NCBI RefSeq assembly: GCF_013315695.1
Contig: NZ_CP054353.1
Reading direction: 5' to 3' (one strand)
Source: Escherichia coli
Lineage (GTDB): Bacteria; Pseudomonadota; Gammaproteobacteria; Enterobacterales; Enterobacteriaceae
Length of the DNA: 64,000 nucleotides
Shown: positions 1 through 64,000 of the stretch, in pieces
Layout of the letters: the number at the start of each line of letters is the position of its first letter
Position numbering within the stretch: the first letter of the stretch is position 1
Program-made: the position numbers and the translations under genes
The notes under the pieces: model-generated
What the model was told of the DNA's origin: nothing
What the model saw: only the letters and a program-made list of their open reading frames with translations
Databases searched by the model: none

Positions 1-632
1 TGGGCACCGCAGCTGGCCCACATCCTTATCCGACCATTGTCCGTGAGTTTCAGCGAATGATTGGCGAAGAAACCAAAGCACAGATTCTGGAAAGAGAAGG
101 TCGCCTGCCGGATGCGGTTATCGCCTGTGTTGGCGGCGGTTCGAATGCCATCGGCATGTTTGCAGATTTCATCAACGAAACCGACGTCGGCCTGATTGGT
201 GTGGAGCCTGGCGGCCACGGTATCGAAACTGGCGAGCACGGCGCACCGTTAAAACATGGTCGCGTGGGCATCTATTTCGGTATGAAAGCGCCGATGATGC
301 AAACCGAAGACGGGCAAATTGAAGAGTCTTACTCCATTTCTGCCGGGCTGGATTTCCCGTCCGTCGGCCCGCAACATGCGTATCTCAACAGCACTGGACG
401 CGCTGATTACGTGTCTATTACCGACGATGAAGCCCTGGAAGCCTTTAAAACGCTTTGCCTGCATGAAGGGATCATCCCGGCGCTGGAATCCTCCCACGCC
501 CTGGCCCATGCGCTGAAAATGATGCGCGAAAATCCGGAAAAAGAGCAGCTATTGGTGGTTAACCTTTCCGGTCGCGGCGATAAAGACATCTTCACCGTTC
601 ACGATATTTTGAAAGCACGAGGGGAAATCTGA
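1..632 (+). CDS. trpB: tryptophan synthase beta chain, 3' portion (5' end outside window)
   Basis: Frame open from window edge; translated C-terminus (...[13 protein letters not shown]...NLSGRGDKD...) is TrpB-like; stop overlaps next start as TGATG. Confidence 0.9.
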
Positions 633-18949: not shown

Positions 18950-18990
18950 CTCACCAAACAACTAGTCACCAGTTAAGACACCGCAAAATT

Positions 18991-19027
18991 TACCCATGGG
19001 TATTTACTTTTTAAATACCTATGGGTA
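18991..19027. promoter_or_regulatory. OL-like operator pair downstream of the repressor gene
   Basis: Perfect palindrome TACCCATGGGTA (18991-19002) and TACCTATGGGTA (19016-19027), same TACC-N4-GGTA architecture as the OR sites. Confidence 0.55.
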
Positions 19028-19213
19028 TCCTTCTTTTCATACCAACCCACCCCGCCCCACAGAATGCAGGGCAATACTTCGAGTTACCAGGCAGTGGTCA
19101 GGGGTTAAGTAGCCAGCCCGAGGCGTAAGAACATGACGGCAGGGTTCAACTTTAATAACTATGCAGCAGGTTTTTGTTCCGCTACCCCGGCGTTAAGGGG
19201 AAATGAGGTCAGC

Positions 19214-57766: not shown

Positions 57767-59301
57767 GGGTGCGGCTCCGTTTTGCTGGTTACGTCGATGG
57801 CATCGATACGGCGGCTGTTGAACAGATTGAATTTGGTATCTGAACCGTGGCAGCCATCACCAAAGGTAAAGCCGCAGCCATTTTTCTCCGGGAAGGCTTC
57901 CCGCGCCAGTTCACGATGACTACTCGGCACCACAAAGCGATCTTCGTAGTTAGCAATCGCCAGATAACGGTACATCTCCTGTGCCTGGGCTTCGGTCAGA
58001 CCGACCTCTTCCAGCGCACGGGTATCCACTTTCCCGTCAACGGTTTCAGCACGTTTATAATGACGCATCGCCAGCATACGTTTCAGCGCGCGCAGTACCG
58101 GTTTGGTATCACCGGCGGTCAGCAGATTCGCCAGATACTGTACCGGAATACGCAGGCTTTCGACGTCTGGCAGAATGCCGTTGCTGCCCAGCTCACCCGC
58201 ATCTGCTGCAGACTGAATCGGAGACAGAGGCGGCACGTACCAGACCATCGGCAGTGTGCGATATTCCGGATGCAGCGGCAGCGCCAGTTTCCATTCCATC
58301 GCCATTTTATAAACCGGCGACTGCTGTGCGGCTTCAATAACGCTCAGCGGAATACCGTCTTTAATCGCCTGCTCGATGACTTTCGGATCGTTCGGATCGA
58401 GGAACACGTCCAGCTGACGCTGGTAAAGATCTTTCTCGTTCTCAGTGCTGGCTGCACGTTCAATAGCGTCGGCATCGTACAACAGCACGCCGAGATAACG
58501 GATACGACCGACACAGGTTTCTGAGCACACGGTCGGCTGACCCGCTTCAATACGCGGATAGCAGAAGATGCACTTCTCAGACTTACCGCTCTTCCAGTTG
58601 AAATAGATTTTTTTGTACGGGCATCCGGTGATGCACATACGCCAGCCACGGCATTTATCCTGGTCGATCAGAACGATGCCATCTTCTTCACGCTTGTAAA
58701 TCGCACCGCTCGGGCAGGTCGCCACACATGCCGGGTTCAGGCAGTGTTCGCACAGGCGCGGCAAATACATCATGAAGGTGTTTTCGAACTGGCTATACAT
58801 CGCCTTCTGGATGTTGTCGAAGTTCTTGTCTTTCGCCAGCTTGTCGAACTCACCGCCCAGGTCATCTTCCCAGTTCGGCCCTTTTTCGATTTTCGCCATC
58901 CGTTCGCCGGTAATCAGCGAACGCGGACGGGCAATCGGCTGCGACTTGCTGCCTTCCGGCGCGGTATGCAGGTTCTGATAGTCAAAATCGAACGGCTCGT
59001 AATAATCGTCGATCCCCGGCAGATGCGGGTTAGCGAAGATTTTACCCAGCAGCATGGCGCGGTTACCCATGCGCGGCTGCAGTTTGCCGTTGATTTTACG
59101 GATCCAGCCGCCTTTGTATTTTTCCTGGTTTTCCCAGTCAGTCGGGAAGCCCTGGCCCGGCTTGGTTTCCACGTTGTTGAACCACGCGTATTCCACGCCT
59201 TCGCGGCTGGTCCAGACGTTTTTACAGGTAACTGAACAGGTGTGGCAGCCGATGCACTTATCGAGATTCAGCACCATGCCGACTTGTGAACGAATTTTCA
59301 T
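57763..59301 (-). CDS. narH: respiratory nitrate reductase 1 beta subunit
   Basis: 512-aa Cys-rich iron-sulfur protein (CIGCHTCSVTC..., CEHCLNPACVATCP...). Confidence 0.95.
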   Translation of the reverse strand: MKIRSQVGMVLNLDKCIGCHTCSVTCKNVWTSREGVEYAWFNNVETKPGQGFPTDWENQEKYKGGWIRKINGKLQPRMGNRAMLLGKIFANPHLPGIDDYYEPFDFDYQNLHTAPEGSKSQPIARPRSLITGERMAKIEKGPNWEDDLGGEFDKLAKDKNFDNIQKAMYSQFENTFMMYLPRLCEHCLNPACVATCPSGAIYKREEDGIVLIDQDKCRGWRMCITGCPYKKIYFNWKSGKSEKCIFCYPRIEAGQPTVCSETCVGRIRYLGVLLYDADAIERAASTENEKDLYQRQLDVFLDPNDPKVIEQAIKDGIPLSVIEAAQQSPVYKMAMEWKLALPLHPEYRTLPMVWYVPPLSPIQSAADAGELGSNGILPDVESLRIPVQYLANLLTAGDTKPVLRALKRMLAMRHYKRAETVDGKVDTRALEEVGLTEAQAQEMYRYLAIANYEDRFVVPSSHRELAREAFPEKNGCGFTFGDGCHGSDTKFNLFNSRRIDAIDVTSKTEPHP

Positions 59302-62300
59302 TTTACGCTCTCCTGTACCTGGTCATTGCCTTCGCCATCTAACCAGTCAATGTTCTTCATCTTACGCACTACAACAAACTCATCGCGGTTAGAACCTACG
59401 GTGCCGTAGTAGTTAAAGCCGTATGCCAGATGGGCATAGCCGCCGATCATATGCGTCGGTTTCGGCGTGATACGGGTGACCGAGTTATGGATACCACCAC
59501 GCTGTTGGGTAATTTCCGAACCAGGCAGGTTAACGATACGTTCCTGCGCGTGGTACATCATGGTCATCCCTGCCGGAACACGCTGGCTGACAACCGCACG
59601 GGCAGTCAGAGCACCGTTGCTGTTGAAGACTTCAATCCAGTCGTTATCGGCAATGCCCAGATCTTTGGCATCGGCTTCACTCAGCCAGACCACCGGACCA
59701 CCGCGACCTAAAGTCAGCATCAGCAGGTTGTCGCTGTAGGTGGAGTGGATACCCCACTTCTGGTGCGGCGTCAGGAAGTTGAGCGCTTTTTCCGGGTTGC
59801 CGTTGGATTTCTGCCCCATCACTTCTTTCACCGAACGGGTGTCGATCGGCGGACGATAAACCAGCAGGCTTTCACCGAAATCACGCATCCACTGGTGATC
59901 CTGATACAGTTGCTGACGACCAGAGAGCGTACGCCATGGGATCAGCTCGTGAACGTTGGTGTAACCGGCGTTGTAAGAAACGTGTTCATCTTCCAGACCA
60001 GACCAGGTCGGGCTGGAGATAATTTTGCGCGGCTGTGCCTGAATATCGCGGAAGCGGATCTTCTCGTCTTCTTTATTCAGCGCCAGATGCGTATGGTCAC
60101 GACCGGTAAATTCGCTCAGGGCAGCCCAGGCTTTTACAGCTACCTGACCATTGGTTTCCGGTGCCAGCGTCAGGATCATCTCTGCTGCATCAATTGCGGT
60201 ATTGAGCATCGGCTGACCTTTTGCCGGACCTTCCGCTTTGGTGTAGTTGAGCTTACGCAGCAGATCCATCTCGCTCTGGGTGTTCCAGGCAATCCCTTTA
60301 CCGCCATTACCGATTTTCTCCATCAGCGGGCCGATAGAGGTAAAGCGTTCGTAAGTCGCCGGATAATCGCGCTCTACGACCATAATGTGCGGTGCAGTTT
60401 TACCTGGGATCAGGTCGCATTCGCCTTTTTTCCAGTCTTTCACATCCAGCGGCTGTGCCAGTTCAGCGGCAGAGTCGTGCTGGATAGGCAGCGTGACGAT
60501 GTCGGTTTCTTTACCCAGATGACCAACGCACACTTCGGAGAATTTCCTGGCGATGGCTTTGTAGATTTCCCAGTCGCTTTTCGCTTCCCAGGCCGGATCG
60601 ACCGCCGCAGACAGCGGGTGAATAAACGGATGCATATCCGAAGTATTCATGTCGTCTTTTTCGTACCAGGTCGCCGTCGGCAAAATGATGTCGGAATAGA
60701 GACAGGTGCTCGACAGACGGAAGTCCAGCGTCACCACCAGATCCAGCTTGCCTTCCAGACCATTGTCCTGCCAGTCCACTTCTTCCGGCTTCACGCCGCC
60801 CTGCTGCCCCAGATCTTTACCCTGGATACCGTGCTCCGTCCCCAGCAGGTACTTGAGCATAAACTCATGACCTTTACCGGAAGAACCGAGCAGGTTAGAA
60901 CGCCAGATGAACAGGTTACGCGGGTGGTTTTTACCGTTTTCCGGCTGTTCCGCAGCGAAACGGATAGAACCCTCTTTCAGGGATTTCACCGTATAGTCCA
61001 CCGGATTCATCCCGGCTTTTTCTGCTTCGCGAGCGATAGTCAGCGGGTTAGTGCCTAACTGCGGTGCAGACGGCAGCCAGCCCATGCGTTCCGCACGGAC
61101 GTTAAAGTCGATCAGGTGTCCGGTATAACGGGATTTATCCGCCATCGGTGACAGCAACTCTTCCGCCGTGACGGTTTCATAACGCCACTGGCTGGAGTGG
61201 TTATAGAAATAAGAAGTGCTGTTCATGTGACGCGCCGGACGCTGCCAGTCAAGGGCAAACGCCAGCGGCTGCCAGCCGGTTTGCGGACGCAGTTTTTCCT
61301 GACCTACATAGTGCGCCCAGCCACCCCCGCTCTGACCGACACAGCCGCAGAAAATCAGCATGTTGATCAGACCACGATAGTTCATGTCCAGGTGATACCA
61401 GTGGTTCAGTCCCGCACCGACGATAATCATCGAACGACCGTGCGTTTTATCAGCGTTATCGGCAAATTCACGGGCGATGCGAATAATCTGGCTGCGAGAA
61501 ACGCCAGTGATTTGCTCGGCCCACGCCGGAGTGTAAGCTTTCACATCGTCATAGCTGGCTGCACAGTTAACGTCGTTCAGGCCACGTTCCAGACCATAGT
61601 TTGCCAGCGTCAGATCATAAACGGTGGTCACCAGGGCGGTGCTGCCATCAGCCAGTTGCAAGCGTTTCACCGGCAGCTTGTGCAGCAGCACGTTTTCCAG
61701 TTCCACTTTGTTGAAGTGTTCCGTGCCGTCGCCACCAAAGTACGGGAAGCCCACCTCAGCGATCTCATCCTGGCTACCCAGCAGGCTCAGTTGCAGCTCG
61801 GTTTCTTCGCCAGTTTTGCCGTCGCGCTGCTCAAGATTCCATTTGCCCTTCTCGCCCCAGCGGAAGCCAATAGAACCGTTCGGCGCAACCATTTCGCCAT
61901 TGGTATTAAAGGCGACAGTTTTCCATTCCGGATTGTTTTCCTGGCCCAGCGCATCCACCAGATCGGCAGCGCGCAGCATACGACCTGCGGCGTAGTAACC
62001 GTCGCGTTCTTCCAGCATCACCAGCATCGGCATGTCGGTGTAGCGACGCACATAGTCGGTGAAATACTGGCTTGGGTTGTCGAGGTGGAATTCACGCAGC
62101 ATTACGTGACCCATTGCCAGCGCCATTGCCGCATCGGTGCCCTGTTTCGGTGCCAGCCACAGATCGCACAGTTTGGCGATTTCAGCGTAGTCTGGTGTGA
62201 CGGCAACAGTTTTGGTGCCTTTGTAACGCACTTCAGTAAAGAAGTGAGCATCCGGGGTACGCGTCTGCGGCACGTTTGAACCCCAAGCGATGATGTAGCT

Positions 62301-63041
62301 GGAGTTGTACCAGTCAGCAGATTCCGGTACGTCAGTTTGCTCGCCCCAGGTTTGCGGAGACGCAGGAGGCAGGTCGCAGTACCAGTCGTAGAAGCTTAAG
62401 CAAGTACCGCCAATCAGCGAAAGATAGCGTGCACCCGATGCGTAAGAAACCATCGACATTGCCGGAATTGGCGAGAAGCCAGCGACGCGGTCCGGGCCGT
62501 AGTTTTTGATGGTGTAAACGTTAGAGGCGGCGATCAGTTCATTCACTTCCTGCCAGGAAGAACGAACAAAACCACCGCGTCCACGCGCCTGCTTAAAGCT
62601 TTTCGCTTTATCGGCGTCTTCAATGATAGAAGCCCATGCCTCAACCGGATCGCTATGCAGCGCCTTCGCTTCACGCCACATTTTCATCAGGCGTTTGCGC
62701 ATCATTGGGTATTTCAGGCGGTTGGCGCTGTAAAGATACCAGGAGTAGCTGGCACCGCGCGGGCAGCCGCGAGGTTCATGGTTTGGCAGGTCCGGGCGAG
62801 TACGCGGATAGTCAGTCTGCTGGGTTTCCCAGGTCACCAGACCGTTTTTGACGTAGATTTTCCAGCTGCAGGAGCCGGTGCAGTTTACCCCGTGGGTAGA
62901 GCGGACGATTTTGTCATGCTGCCAACGCTGGCGATATCCATCCTCCCAGTCACGGTTGGTATTGAGAAGCTGGCCATGCCCATCGGCAAAGGTTTCACCC
63001 TTCTGTTTGAAGTAGCGAAACCGGTCCAGGAATTTACTCAT
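59298..63041 (-). CDS. narG: respiratory nitrate reductase 1 alpha subunit
   Basis: 1247-aa molybdopterin oxidoreductase MSKFLDRFRYFKQKGETFADGHGQ... Confidence 0.97.
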   Translation of the reverse strand: MSKFLDRFRYFKQKGETFADGHGQLLNTNRDWEDGYRQRWQHDKIVRSTHGVNCTGSCSWKIYVKNGLVTWETQQTDYPRTRPDLPNHEPRGCPRGASYSWYLYSANRLKYPMMRKRLMKMWREAKALHSDPVEAWASIIEDADKAKSFKQARGRGGFVRSSWQEVNELIAASNVYTIKNYGPDRVAGFSPIPAMSMVSYASGARYLSLIGGTCLSFYDWYCDLPPASPQTWGEQTDVPESADWYNSSYIIAWGSNVPQTRTPDAHFFTEVRYKGTKTVAVTPDYAEIAKLCDLWLAPKQGTDAAMALAMGHVMLREFHLDNPSQYFTDYVRRYTDMPMLVMLEERDGYYAAGRMLRAADLVDALGQENNPEWKTVAFNTNGEMVAPNGSIGFRWGEKGKWNLEQRDGKTGEETELQLSLLGSQDEIAEVGFPYFGGDGTEHFNKVELENVLLHKLPVKRLQLADGSTALVTTVYDLTLANYGLERGLNDVNCAASYDDVKAYTPAWAEQITGVSRSQIIRIAREFADNADKTHGRSMIIVGAGLNHWYHLDMNYRGLINMLIFCGCVGQSGGGWAHYVGQEKLRPQTGWQPLAFALDWQRPARHMNSTSYFYNHSSQWRYETVTAEELLSPMADKSRYTGHLIDFNVRAERMGWLPSAPQLGTNPLTIAREAEKAGMNPVDYTVKSLKEGSIRFAAEQPENGKNHPRNLFIWRSNLLGSSGKGHEFMLKYLLGTEHGIQGKDLGQQGGVKPEEVDWQDNGLEGKLDLVVTLDFRLSSTCLYSDIILPTATWYEKDDMNTSDMHPFIHPLSAAVDPAWEAKSDWEIYKAIARKFSEVCVGHLGKETDIVTLPIQHDSAAELAQPLDVKDWKKGECDLIPGKTAPHIMVVERDYPATYERFTSIGPLMEKIGNGGKGIAWNTQSEMDLLRKLNYTKAEGPAKGQPMLNTAIDAAEMILTLAPETNGQVAVKAWAALSEFTGRDHTHLALNKEDEKIRFRDIQAQPRKIISSPTWSGLEDEHVSYNAGYTNVHELIPWRTLSGRQQLYQDHQWMRDFGESLLVYRPPIDTRSVKEVMGQKSNGNPEKALNFLTPHQKWGIHSTYSDNLLMLTLGRGGPVVWLSEADAKDLGIADNDWIEVFNSNGALTARAVVSQRVPAGMTMMYHAQERIVNLPGSEITQQRGGIHNSVTRITPKPTHMIGGYAHLAYGFNYYGTVGSNRDEFVVVRKMKNIDWLDGEGNDQVQESVK

Positions 63042-63132
63042 CGGTTTTCTCCTGTGGGAGCCTGTCGGCCCTCTGATAAATCGACATTGCTAATGTTTAA
63101 GGGCAAAGTAACGCTCTGAAACAGCGTGAGAA

Positions 63133-63146
63133 TTGATAACGATCAA
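63133..63146. promoter_or_regulatory. FNR box in the narG promoter
   Basis: Perfect TTGAT-AACG-ATCAA about 92 bp upstream of the narG start codon; NarL-heptamer-like TACCCCT further upstream (about 63184-63190). Confidence 0.7.
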
Positions 63147-63434
63147 GAGTGATGGGGATGAAAAATAAAGTAAATTCCTAAGATACCCCTTTAGGATAAT
63201 TAGCAGTTACAGCATAACACGCTGTAAATTAAGACGTTTTATACCTGTAGTTATTTAAACTATTAAGATTTTTATGCAGATGGGTATTAAGGAGTATTCC
63301 CCATGGGTAACATATTAATGGCTCTTAATGAAATCCGGCGAAATAAGCCAATATAATATGAGTATGTTGTAACTAAATGACGCATAAAAAAAGCGCGACA
63401 TCATGCCGCGCAAAGGATAATCAAATATTAAGAT

Positions 63435-64000
63435 TTATTTTTTAGAATGCCGACCATATACCGCCCAGGTAATCACCACGCAGGCGATATAGAAAATCAA
63501 AAATACTTTCATTGCGCCGACTGGCGAACCCGTTAATGCCAGCGAGCTACCAAACGCTTTCGGGATAAAGAAGCCACCAATCGCGCCAATCGCAGAGATG
63601 AAACCCAGCGCCGCCGCCGTGTCGGTTGCCGCTTCACGCATCGCACGTTCGTCAGAACCCCCTTCTGCTTTCACGCGATCCATTGTCAGTTTACGGAAGA
63701 TCACGGAAATCATCTGGAAAGTGGAACCACTACCCAGCCCAGCTGTCAGGAACAGCGCCAGGAAGACTGCGAAGAACGCCATGAAGCTTCCGCCCTGTCC
63801 GTCAGTCGGTAAGGTCAGGAACAGCAGGCCGCTGAAAATCGCCATCAGGATAAAGTTCACCAGCGTGACACGAGTTCCGCCCAGACGGTCAGATAATGCA
63901 CCACCTGCAGAACGCGCCAGCGCACCAATAAACGGCCCGAAGAAAGCGTATTGCAGAATCTGAACATCCGGGAACTGCGTTTTTGACAGCATCGCAAAGC
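63435..64000 (-). CDS. narK: nitrate/nitrite antiporter NarK, 3' portion (5' end outside window)
   Basis: MFS-type membrane ORF running off the window end, upstream of narG on the same strand. Confidence 0.85.
   Translation of the reverse strand, partial: FAMLSKTQFPDVQILQYAFFGPFIGALARSAGGALSDRLGGTRVTLVNFILMAIFSGLLFLTLPTDGQGGSFMAFFAVFLALFLTAGLGSGSTFQMISVIFRKLTMDRVKAEGGSDERAMREAATDTAAALGFISAIGAIGGFFIPKAFGSSLALTGSPVGAMKVFLIFYIACVVITWAVYGRHSKK

Follow-up and report, generated by a model that had tools for sequence, protein, structure and literature searches.

Known control of narGHJI and its neighbours in the narK-narG intergenic region of an Escherichia coli genome

The promoter of narGHJI in Escherichia coli K-12 is a well-described system. 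Transcription of narG is published to depend on FNR and anoxia in K-12 (PMC3688515, PMC4549865), and Myers et al. 2013 found an FNR peak at narGHJI by ChIP-seq and gave the site as -41.5 (PMC3688515). Activation of narG by nitrate and NarL is likewise published for K-12 (PMC4549865, PMC9314961). NarL-P footprints at narG are centred at -89 (high affinity) and at -195 (Katsir et al. 2015, PMC4549865), narG is without 7-2-7 NarL sites, and FNR and IHF are also required (PMC4549865), the requirement for IHF being described in other papers as well (PMC9314961, PMC3688515). At the far end of the same gap, NarS is known as a small RNA (sRNA) that depends on Hfq and arises by processing of the narK 3'UTR (Wang et al. 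2020, PMC7038943).

The locus considered here lies in a window of 64 kb, by which we mean the whole stretch of DNA that was analysed. In a profile search, the long minus-strand open reading frame (ORF) scored 2596 bits with the narG equivalog model TIGR01580, whose cutoff is 1084. The gap that runs from the narG start to where the next gene, also on the minus strand, has its 3' end (63042..63434) is 393 bp long. The coding sequence and its ribosome-binding site are as follows.

59298..63041, minus strand: narG coding sequence (nitrate reductase A alpha subunit, 1247 aa), from the ORF list
63049..63053, minus strand: narG Shine-Dalgarno sequence (SD) AGGAG, read from sequence and at least 95% conserved in 109 species sequences

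A 701-bp region spanning the gap is 100% identical to E. coli AR_0013, in which the RefSeq annotation gives the gene order narX, narK, narG; identity to K-12 over the same 701 bp is 97.8%, split in two pieces. The region is annotated as narK-narG in 5415 of 5426 complete E. coli genomes. Judged by homology, the stretch is the E. coli narK-narG intergenic region. The idea that this is instead the promoter of narZYWV (nitrate reductase Z) or of some other molybdoenzyme owes what appeal it has to the close paralogy of NarG and NarZ, which a family model alone might not part. We give it practically no credence, as narK stands immediately upstream of the gene and narX next to narK (AR_0013), the K-12 narK-narG gap aligns at 97.8%, and the RefSeq name is narG in 5415 genomes. 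The N-terminus also argues against NarZ: it reads MSKFLDR, and our locus search pattern demanded Phe at residue 4. Residue 4 is Leu in NarZ, versus Phe in the product of the window's gene. The earlier note had offered this locus as a positive control for strand and coordinates, and in that role it performs as intended, with organism (E. coli), strand (narG on the minus strand) and coordinates all in agreement. That first reading left the minus strand of narG unstated; its coordinates and distances were right.

The narG promoter and its regulatory sites

Upstream of narG, the gap contains the elements listed below, numbered relative to the transcription start.

63098, minus strand: predicted transcription start (+1), as placed by the FNR centre at -41.5 and the -10 geometry
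63105..63110, minus strand: -10 hexamer TACTTT, with T, A and the final T at least 95% conserved
63133..63146, palindrome without strand: FNR site, TTGATCGTTATCAA on the narG strand, perfect consensus, class II, centre -41.5
63184..63190, plus strand: NarL heptamer TACCCCT, centre -89, inverted relative to narG (motif scan; footprinted region)
63203..63221, strand not applicable: polymorphic hot-spot at -105..-123 with 7 differences from K-12 (alignments)
63215..63227, minus strand: candidate IHF core TTACAGCGTGTTA, -129..-117, 7/9 to WATCAR-N4-TTR
63280..63286, minus strand: NarL heptamer TACCCAT, centre -185 (motif scan; within the -195 NarL-P footprint region)
63290..63296, minus strand: NarL heptamer TACTCCT, centre -195 (motif scan)
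63303..63309, minus strand: NarL-type heptamer TACCCAT, centre -208 (motif scan)

The FNR palindrome, which reads TTGATAACGATCAA on the plus strand, agrees with TTGAT-N4-ATCAA at 10/10 consensus positions and is the only match to that pattern in the window, where 0.15 would be expected. An FNR box about 92 bp upstream of the narG ATG had been claimed from the first reading, and the measured distances to the A of the ATG (63041) are 92 bp from the proximal edge of the box and 98.5 bp from its centre. Between the centre and the -10 hexamer there are 29 bp, a distance that Hothersall et al. 2022 (PMC9314961) give as optimal for class II. The published position of -41.5 and this 29-bp geometry both place the FNR site where the earlier note had expected it, near -41.5, and no inconsistency with that position was found.

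The NarL heptamer TACCCCT was said to lie about 140 bp upstream of the ATG; it is present, occupying the bases from 143 to 149 bp upstream, and when the FNR centre is set at -41.5, it is centred exactly at -89. A fifth heptamer in the gap, TACTCAT (63358..63364, -263), was rejected as a NarL site, being part of the Ter core treated below.

The exact IHF site at narG is an inferred candidate. Besides the core listed above, a second candidate at -141..-129 has 2 mismatches to WATCAR-N4-TTR. In the species alignment, the only strongly conserved bases in the candidate stretch are C-126, A-125, T-118, and A-117, and these fit the IHF core WATCAR-N4-TTR. The N4 spacer of the candidate core holds two of the seven positions at which the hot-spot is polymorphic relative to K-12.

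Taken together, the gap almost certainly holds the canonical sigma-70 class II promoter of E. coli narGHJI. The match to the known anaerobic and nitrate control of narGHJI, as the earlier note put it, is well supported by FNR ChIP-seq and NarL-P footprints in K-12 and by the same architecture here; the observation is confirmed, and it concerns an already known, textbook feature. Sequence, positions, conservation, and spacing come from the present analysis, and protein binding and dependence come from the K-12 experiments. Under anoxia, dimeric FNR would bind the palindrome at -41.5 and recruit RNA polymerase to a weak -10 hexamer (TACTTT), a usable -35 element being absent. In the presence of nitrate, phosphorylated NarL would occupy the inverted -89 heptamer and its neighbours together with the direct heptamers at -185, -195, and -208. 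An IHF bend around -122 would bring the distal NarL cluster to the promoter, so that full narG promoter activity would require FNR, NarL, and IHF together.

Variation among strains and conservation across Enterobacterales

Compared with the K-12 narG promoter, only nine positions differ between about -215 and the ATG, seven of them at -105..-123 and the others at -31 and -9. The FNR box, the four heptamers, their spacings, and the leader are base-for-base identical, and the comparison with K-12 that the earlier note had proposed thus returns the published architecture with the FNR box and every heptamer intact. The same box and heptamers are also identical in UTI89, O157:H7, two other strains, and E. 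albertii. The -10 hexamer is TACTTT in the window versus TACCTT in K-12 and most species, a C to T change at -9 (63107), and a second C to T change relative to K-12 is found at -31 (63129). This -10 hexamer is a rare variant, and among E. coli records only 34 of 5410 are identical to the window over -28..+35, an interval that includes -9 and excludes -31.

The hot-spot at -105..-123 lies in and beside the candidate IHF core and is mosaic, six E. coli strains showing at least five alleles of it. When a 101-bp segment was compared with the window, 123 records were at least 99% identical, 1135 fell at 95 to 99%, and 3029 fell at 90 to 95%. The window's allele is a minority form (123 records at 99% or more versus 3029 of the K-12 type).

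For the wider comparison, we used 120 narG loci from different Enterobacterales species, anchored on narG codons 3-15 only, so that the choice of loci was blind to the promoter. A palindrome with at most one mismatch to the FNR consensus was found 93.5 to 127.5 bp from the ATG in 117 of the 120 loci. Its spacer varies across loci (CGTT, CATC, CGCC, CCCC, CGCA, and others) while the half-sites are fixed, and two of the three loci lacking the palindrome have incomplete upstream DNA. The third, Izhakiella capsodis (L103), is the sole full-length narG locus without an upstream FNR palindrome, conserved leader, or Ter site; its upstream region has 35% identity to that of the window and is seemingly unrelated.

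In 109 distinct sequences, conservation reaches at least 95% in both half-sites of the FNR box, in the TAC of each element at -89, -185, and -195, and in the T-A---T of the -10 hexamer, where the background is roughly 20 to 40%. The spacing between elements is likewise held: measured from the FNR centre, the distance is 157 bp to the -195 block in 84% of loci and 49 bp to the -89 element in 94%. Spacing is tighter than sequence in this promoter. The DNA between the spaced elements is poorly conserved, which is what looping mediated by IHF predicts.

The heptamers differ in how well they are kept. Of 107 species loci, 88 have an exact consensus heptamer at -195..-197, and only 15 have the strict TACYYMT pattern at -89, where the TAC is nevertheless at least 95% conserved. 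The -185 heptamer keeps its TACC across species. The -208 heptamer is identical among E. coli strains and poorly kept across genera. On this alignment, the -195 heptamer is the best conserved NarL element across genera and that at -89 is one of several. Because the strict consensus at -89 is so infrequent and -208 is poorly kept, not every heptamer need function everywhere.

These data bear on whether the motifs could be chance consensus matches in AT-rich intergenic DNA with no regulatory role. Counts over the whole window would allow it: TACYYMT has 41 matches versus 34.8 expected, a single heptamer match alone is not beyond chance, and 12 of 100 shuffled windows contained at least one perfect FNR palindrome. 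Within the 393-bp gap, however, there are five exact TACYYMT matches versus 0.52 in dinucleotide shuffles, an enrichment of about 10-fold that 0 of 5000 shuffles reached. Moreover, in 117 of 120 loci the palindrome stands at a conserved distance from the ATG, its half-sites fixed and its spacer free to vary; the spacings between elements are fixed across genera, and ChIP-seq (PMC3688515) and footprints (PMC4549865) in K-12 fall on identical sites. By position and cross-species conservation, the FNR box goes far beyond chance, and so do the elements at -89 and -195. An origin by chance, to which we would assign a negligible probability, is refuted by the conservation across species and by the experiments in K-12.

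Elsewhere in the window, two palindromes of 12 bp each, TACCCATGGGTA and TACCTATGGGTA, lie 25 bp apart at 18988..19030 and account for four spurious NarL-heptamer matches. They stand beside a DUF1391 gene in a multi-copy, prophage-type region (median of 2 and up to 8 places per genome), and they look like candidate repressor operators.

NarS, the narK terminator, and the Ter site

The part of the gap nearest narK carries features of a different kind.

63357..63379, plus strand: TerD, putative Tus-binding terminus site, TATGAGTATGTTGTAACTAAATG (consensus match)
63386..63411, minus strand: narK intrinsic terminator, with its stem at 63411..63393 and T-run at 63392..63386 (terminator scan)
63386..63446, minus strand: NarS sRNA, derived from the narK 3'UTR, short form of about 61 nt (K-12 homology)

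The window's Ter site is presumably TerD of the K-12 ter list, being the only Ter-type match here. The label "narG control region," which the earlier note had given to the whole of 63042-63434, holds for the promoter part and fails for NarS, the narK terminator, and TerD, which share the gap; these occupy the narK-proximal 80 bp and are not part of the narG promoter. Neither NarS nor TerD appears in the earlier note, and the Ter site is not known to act in narG control.

Downstream of the narK stop codon (63437..63435) come a seed-like stretch, the terminator hairpin, and the T-run, and the MG1655 annotation has narS (b4813) at the homologous place. Over 15 nt, the NarS seed is perfectly complementary to the nirC SD region (z = -6.4 versus shuffles). 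Like the NarS of PMC7038943, the RNA is found at the narK stop codon and has the narK terminator as its end. It differs in length: at about 61 nt, the window's NarS resembles the 63-nt Salmonella NarS-S, whereas the K-12 long form is about 230 nt (PMC7038943) and the length annotated in MG1655 is 184 nt. The window's form is shorter because an insertion is absent. K-12 has about 122 bp extra directly after the narK stop (467..595 in the K-12 locus, L001), and the corresponding point here lies between 63434 and 63435; the published account sizes an insertion at this place at 170 nt and describes it as lengthening the K-12 NarS (PMC7038943). Of 5426 complete E. coli genomes, 2457 carry the K-12 segment at an identity of at least 99%, and the strain studied here is among the approximately 55% without it. 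Set beside the ERIC primer sequences, the segment looks ERIC-like.

A sigma-70-like site on the plus strand (63328..63357, ATGAAA-18-TATAAT), directed antisense towards NarS and narK, was considered and rejected, one such site being found versus 1.8 expected; its -10 is not kept in K-12.

The Ter consensus GNRNGTTGTAACKA has one exact match in the window, where about 0.03 would be expected. As a reference, we took the tus-adjacent TerB from the genome, and 17 consecutive core bases (17/17) are shared with this TerB, which lies 11 bp upstream of tus; the core is defined, including G6 and positions 8-18, in PMC8347550. The K-12 homolog of the window's site is at 1279527..1279549 and differs from it at positions 1 and 4 of the 23-mer, outside the conserved core. 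The site is oriented as expected of a block to counter-clockwise forks, the direction published for TerA and TerD, which is consistent with polar fork arrest at TerD.

The 14-mer Ter core, allowing at most two mismatches, was found in 79 of 108 species loci, and the Ter island TAGTTACAACATACT (gene strand) is exact in 73 of 112, with unconserved flanks. In 89% of the Ter-bearing loci, the core starts 9 to 11 nt after the T-run of the narK terminator. The syntenic Ter is kept in Escherichia, Salmonella, Citrobacter, Enterobacter, Klebsiella, Kluyvera, Kosakonia, and others. Buttiauxella, Hafnia, and Atlantibacter lack it, as do those Raoultella, Pluralibacter, and Pseudocitrobacter loci whose upstream sequence is complete. 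A functional link of TerD with the NarL cluster was considered and found unsupported, the spacing from Ter to -195 being loose (mode in 36%, standard deviation of 8.2 bp).

The conserved narG leader

Counted from +1 as inferred at 63098, the narG leader would be 57 nt long. Most of its positions are conserved to at least 95% across genera, a level above that of the promoter, and two features stand out in it.

63058..63071, minus strand: leader hairpin GGGCC-GACA-GGCUC, +28..+41, predicted in minimum free energy (MFE) and centroid folds
63078..63090, minus strand: invariant leader box GCAATGTCGATTT, +9..+21, at least 95% conserved and predicted single-stranded

The first nine bases of the box, GCAATGTCG, are present in 101 of 107 loci. 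When each leader was folded singly, anchored on the SD, a hairpin was predicted at this position in 82 of 82 distinct leaders, with a loop that varies freely; Hafnia, Enterobacillus, and Tenebrionibacter have alternative complementary stems. The mean MFE of the leaders is -8.2, versus -3.0 for shuffles. RNAalifold run on the 82 aligned leaders returned a 2-bp helix only, because the variable loop adds alignment gaps.

No Rfam family was found over the leader. A match to L20_leader in the window scored below threshold (24.9 bits versus 58.7), and sub-threshold matches to V_AS5 and RyhB in the K-12 locus were dismissed. An upstream ORF, MSIYQRADRLPQEKTDE (63033..63087, minus strand), starts with an ATG at +12 in the leader box and runs for 17 codons to a stop that overlaps narG codons 2-3. 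No SD was found ahead of its ATG, and it was rejected as a coding sequence, with a stop after three to four codons in many genera and indels that shift the frame.

It is conceivable, if on balance doubtful, that the near-invariant leader, with its box at +9..+21 and hairpin at +28..+41, serves as a post-transcriptional operator, and most likely as a pairing site for RyhB. Such pairing would lower translation of the iron-rich nitrate reductase when iron is scarce, adding a layer to the promoter. Nucleotides 37-46 of the RyhB core form a 10-nt perfect complement of leader positions +8..+17, within a stretch whose box is predicted to be single-stranded, and the leader's conservation above that of the promoter, together with a hairpin retained in every distinct leader and rebuilt from alternative stems in three genera, counts in favour of the idea. 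Furthermore, narG is a previously predicted RyhB target, with a Ribo-seq change of 1.07 (P = 0.022) at an unchanged RNA level (PMC4666370). Energetics speak against the pairing: the duplex with the RyhB core is no better than that with shuffled leaders or random window tiles (z = -0.31), and the duplex of full-length RyhB with the leader is likewise no better than background. With about 100 sRNAs set against an 88-nt leader, a 10-nt complement is expected about once by chance, and the box is conserved over 13 nt, beyond what complementarity to RyhB explains. In the literature searched, we found no compensatory-mutation test of RyhB-narG pairing. Because the duplex energies are not above background, we keep RyhB as a lead only. 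As a tentative proposal, which we regard as improbable rather than probable, the leader box GCAAUGUCGAUUU and the hairpin upstream of the SD may form an uncharacterised operator across Enterobacteriaceae, with a RyhB site as the most plausible identity.

Overall, the control of narG recovered here is nothing new biologically, and the locus serves as a positive control; as it shows, real regulatory sites are recognisable from raw sequence. The cross-genus footprint indicates that conservation runs deep in the FNR box, in the elements at -89 and -195, and in their spacings, and does not at -208, and the Ter site is shown to occupy the syntenic narK-narG position in many genera. Some 400 bp carry four functional layers that are unrelated to one another: a strongly constrained leader, a looped promoter that takes three factors, a barrier to replication forks, and an sRNA together with its terminator. 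If the leader is indeed a site of RyhB pairing, this would put nitrate reductase A under iron-sparing control.
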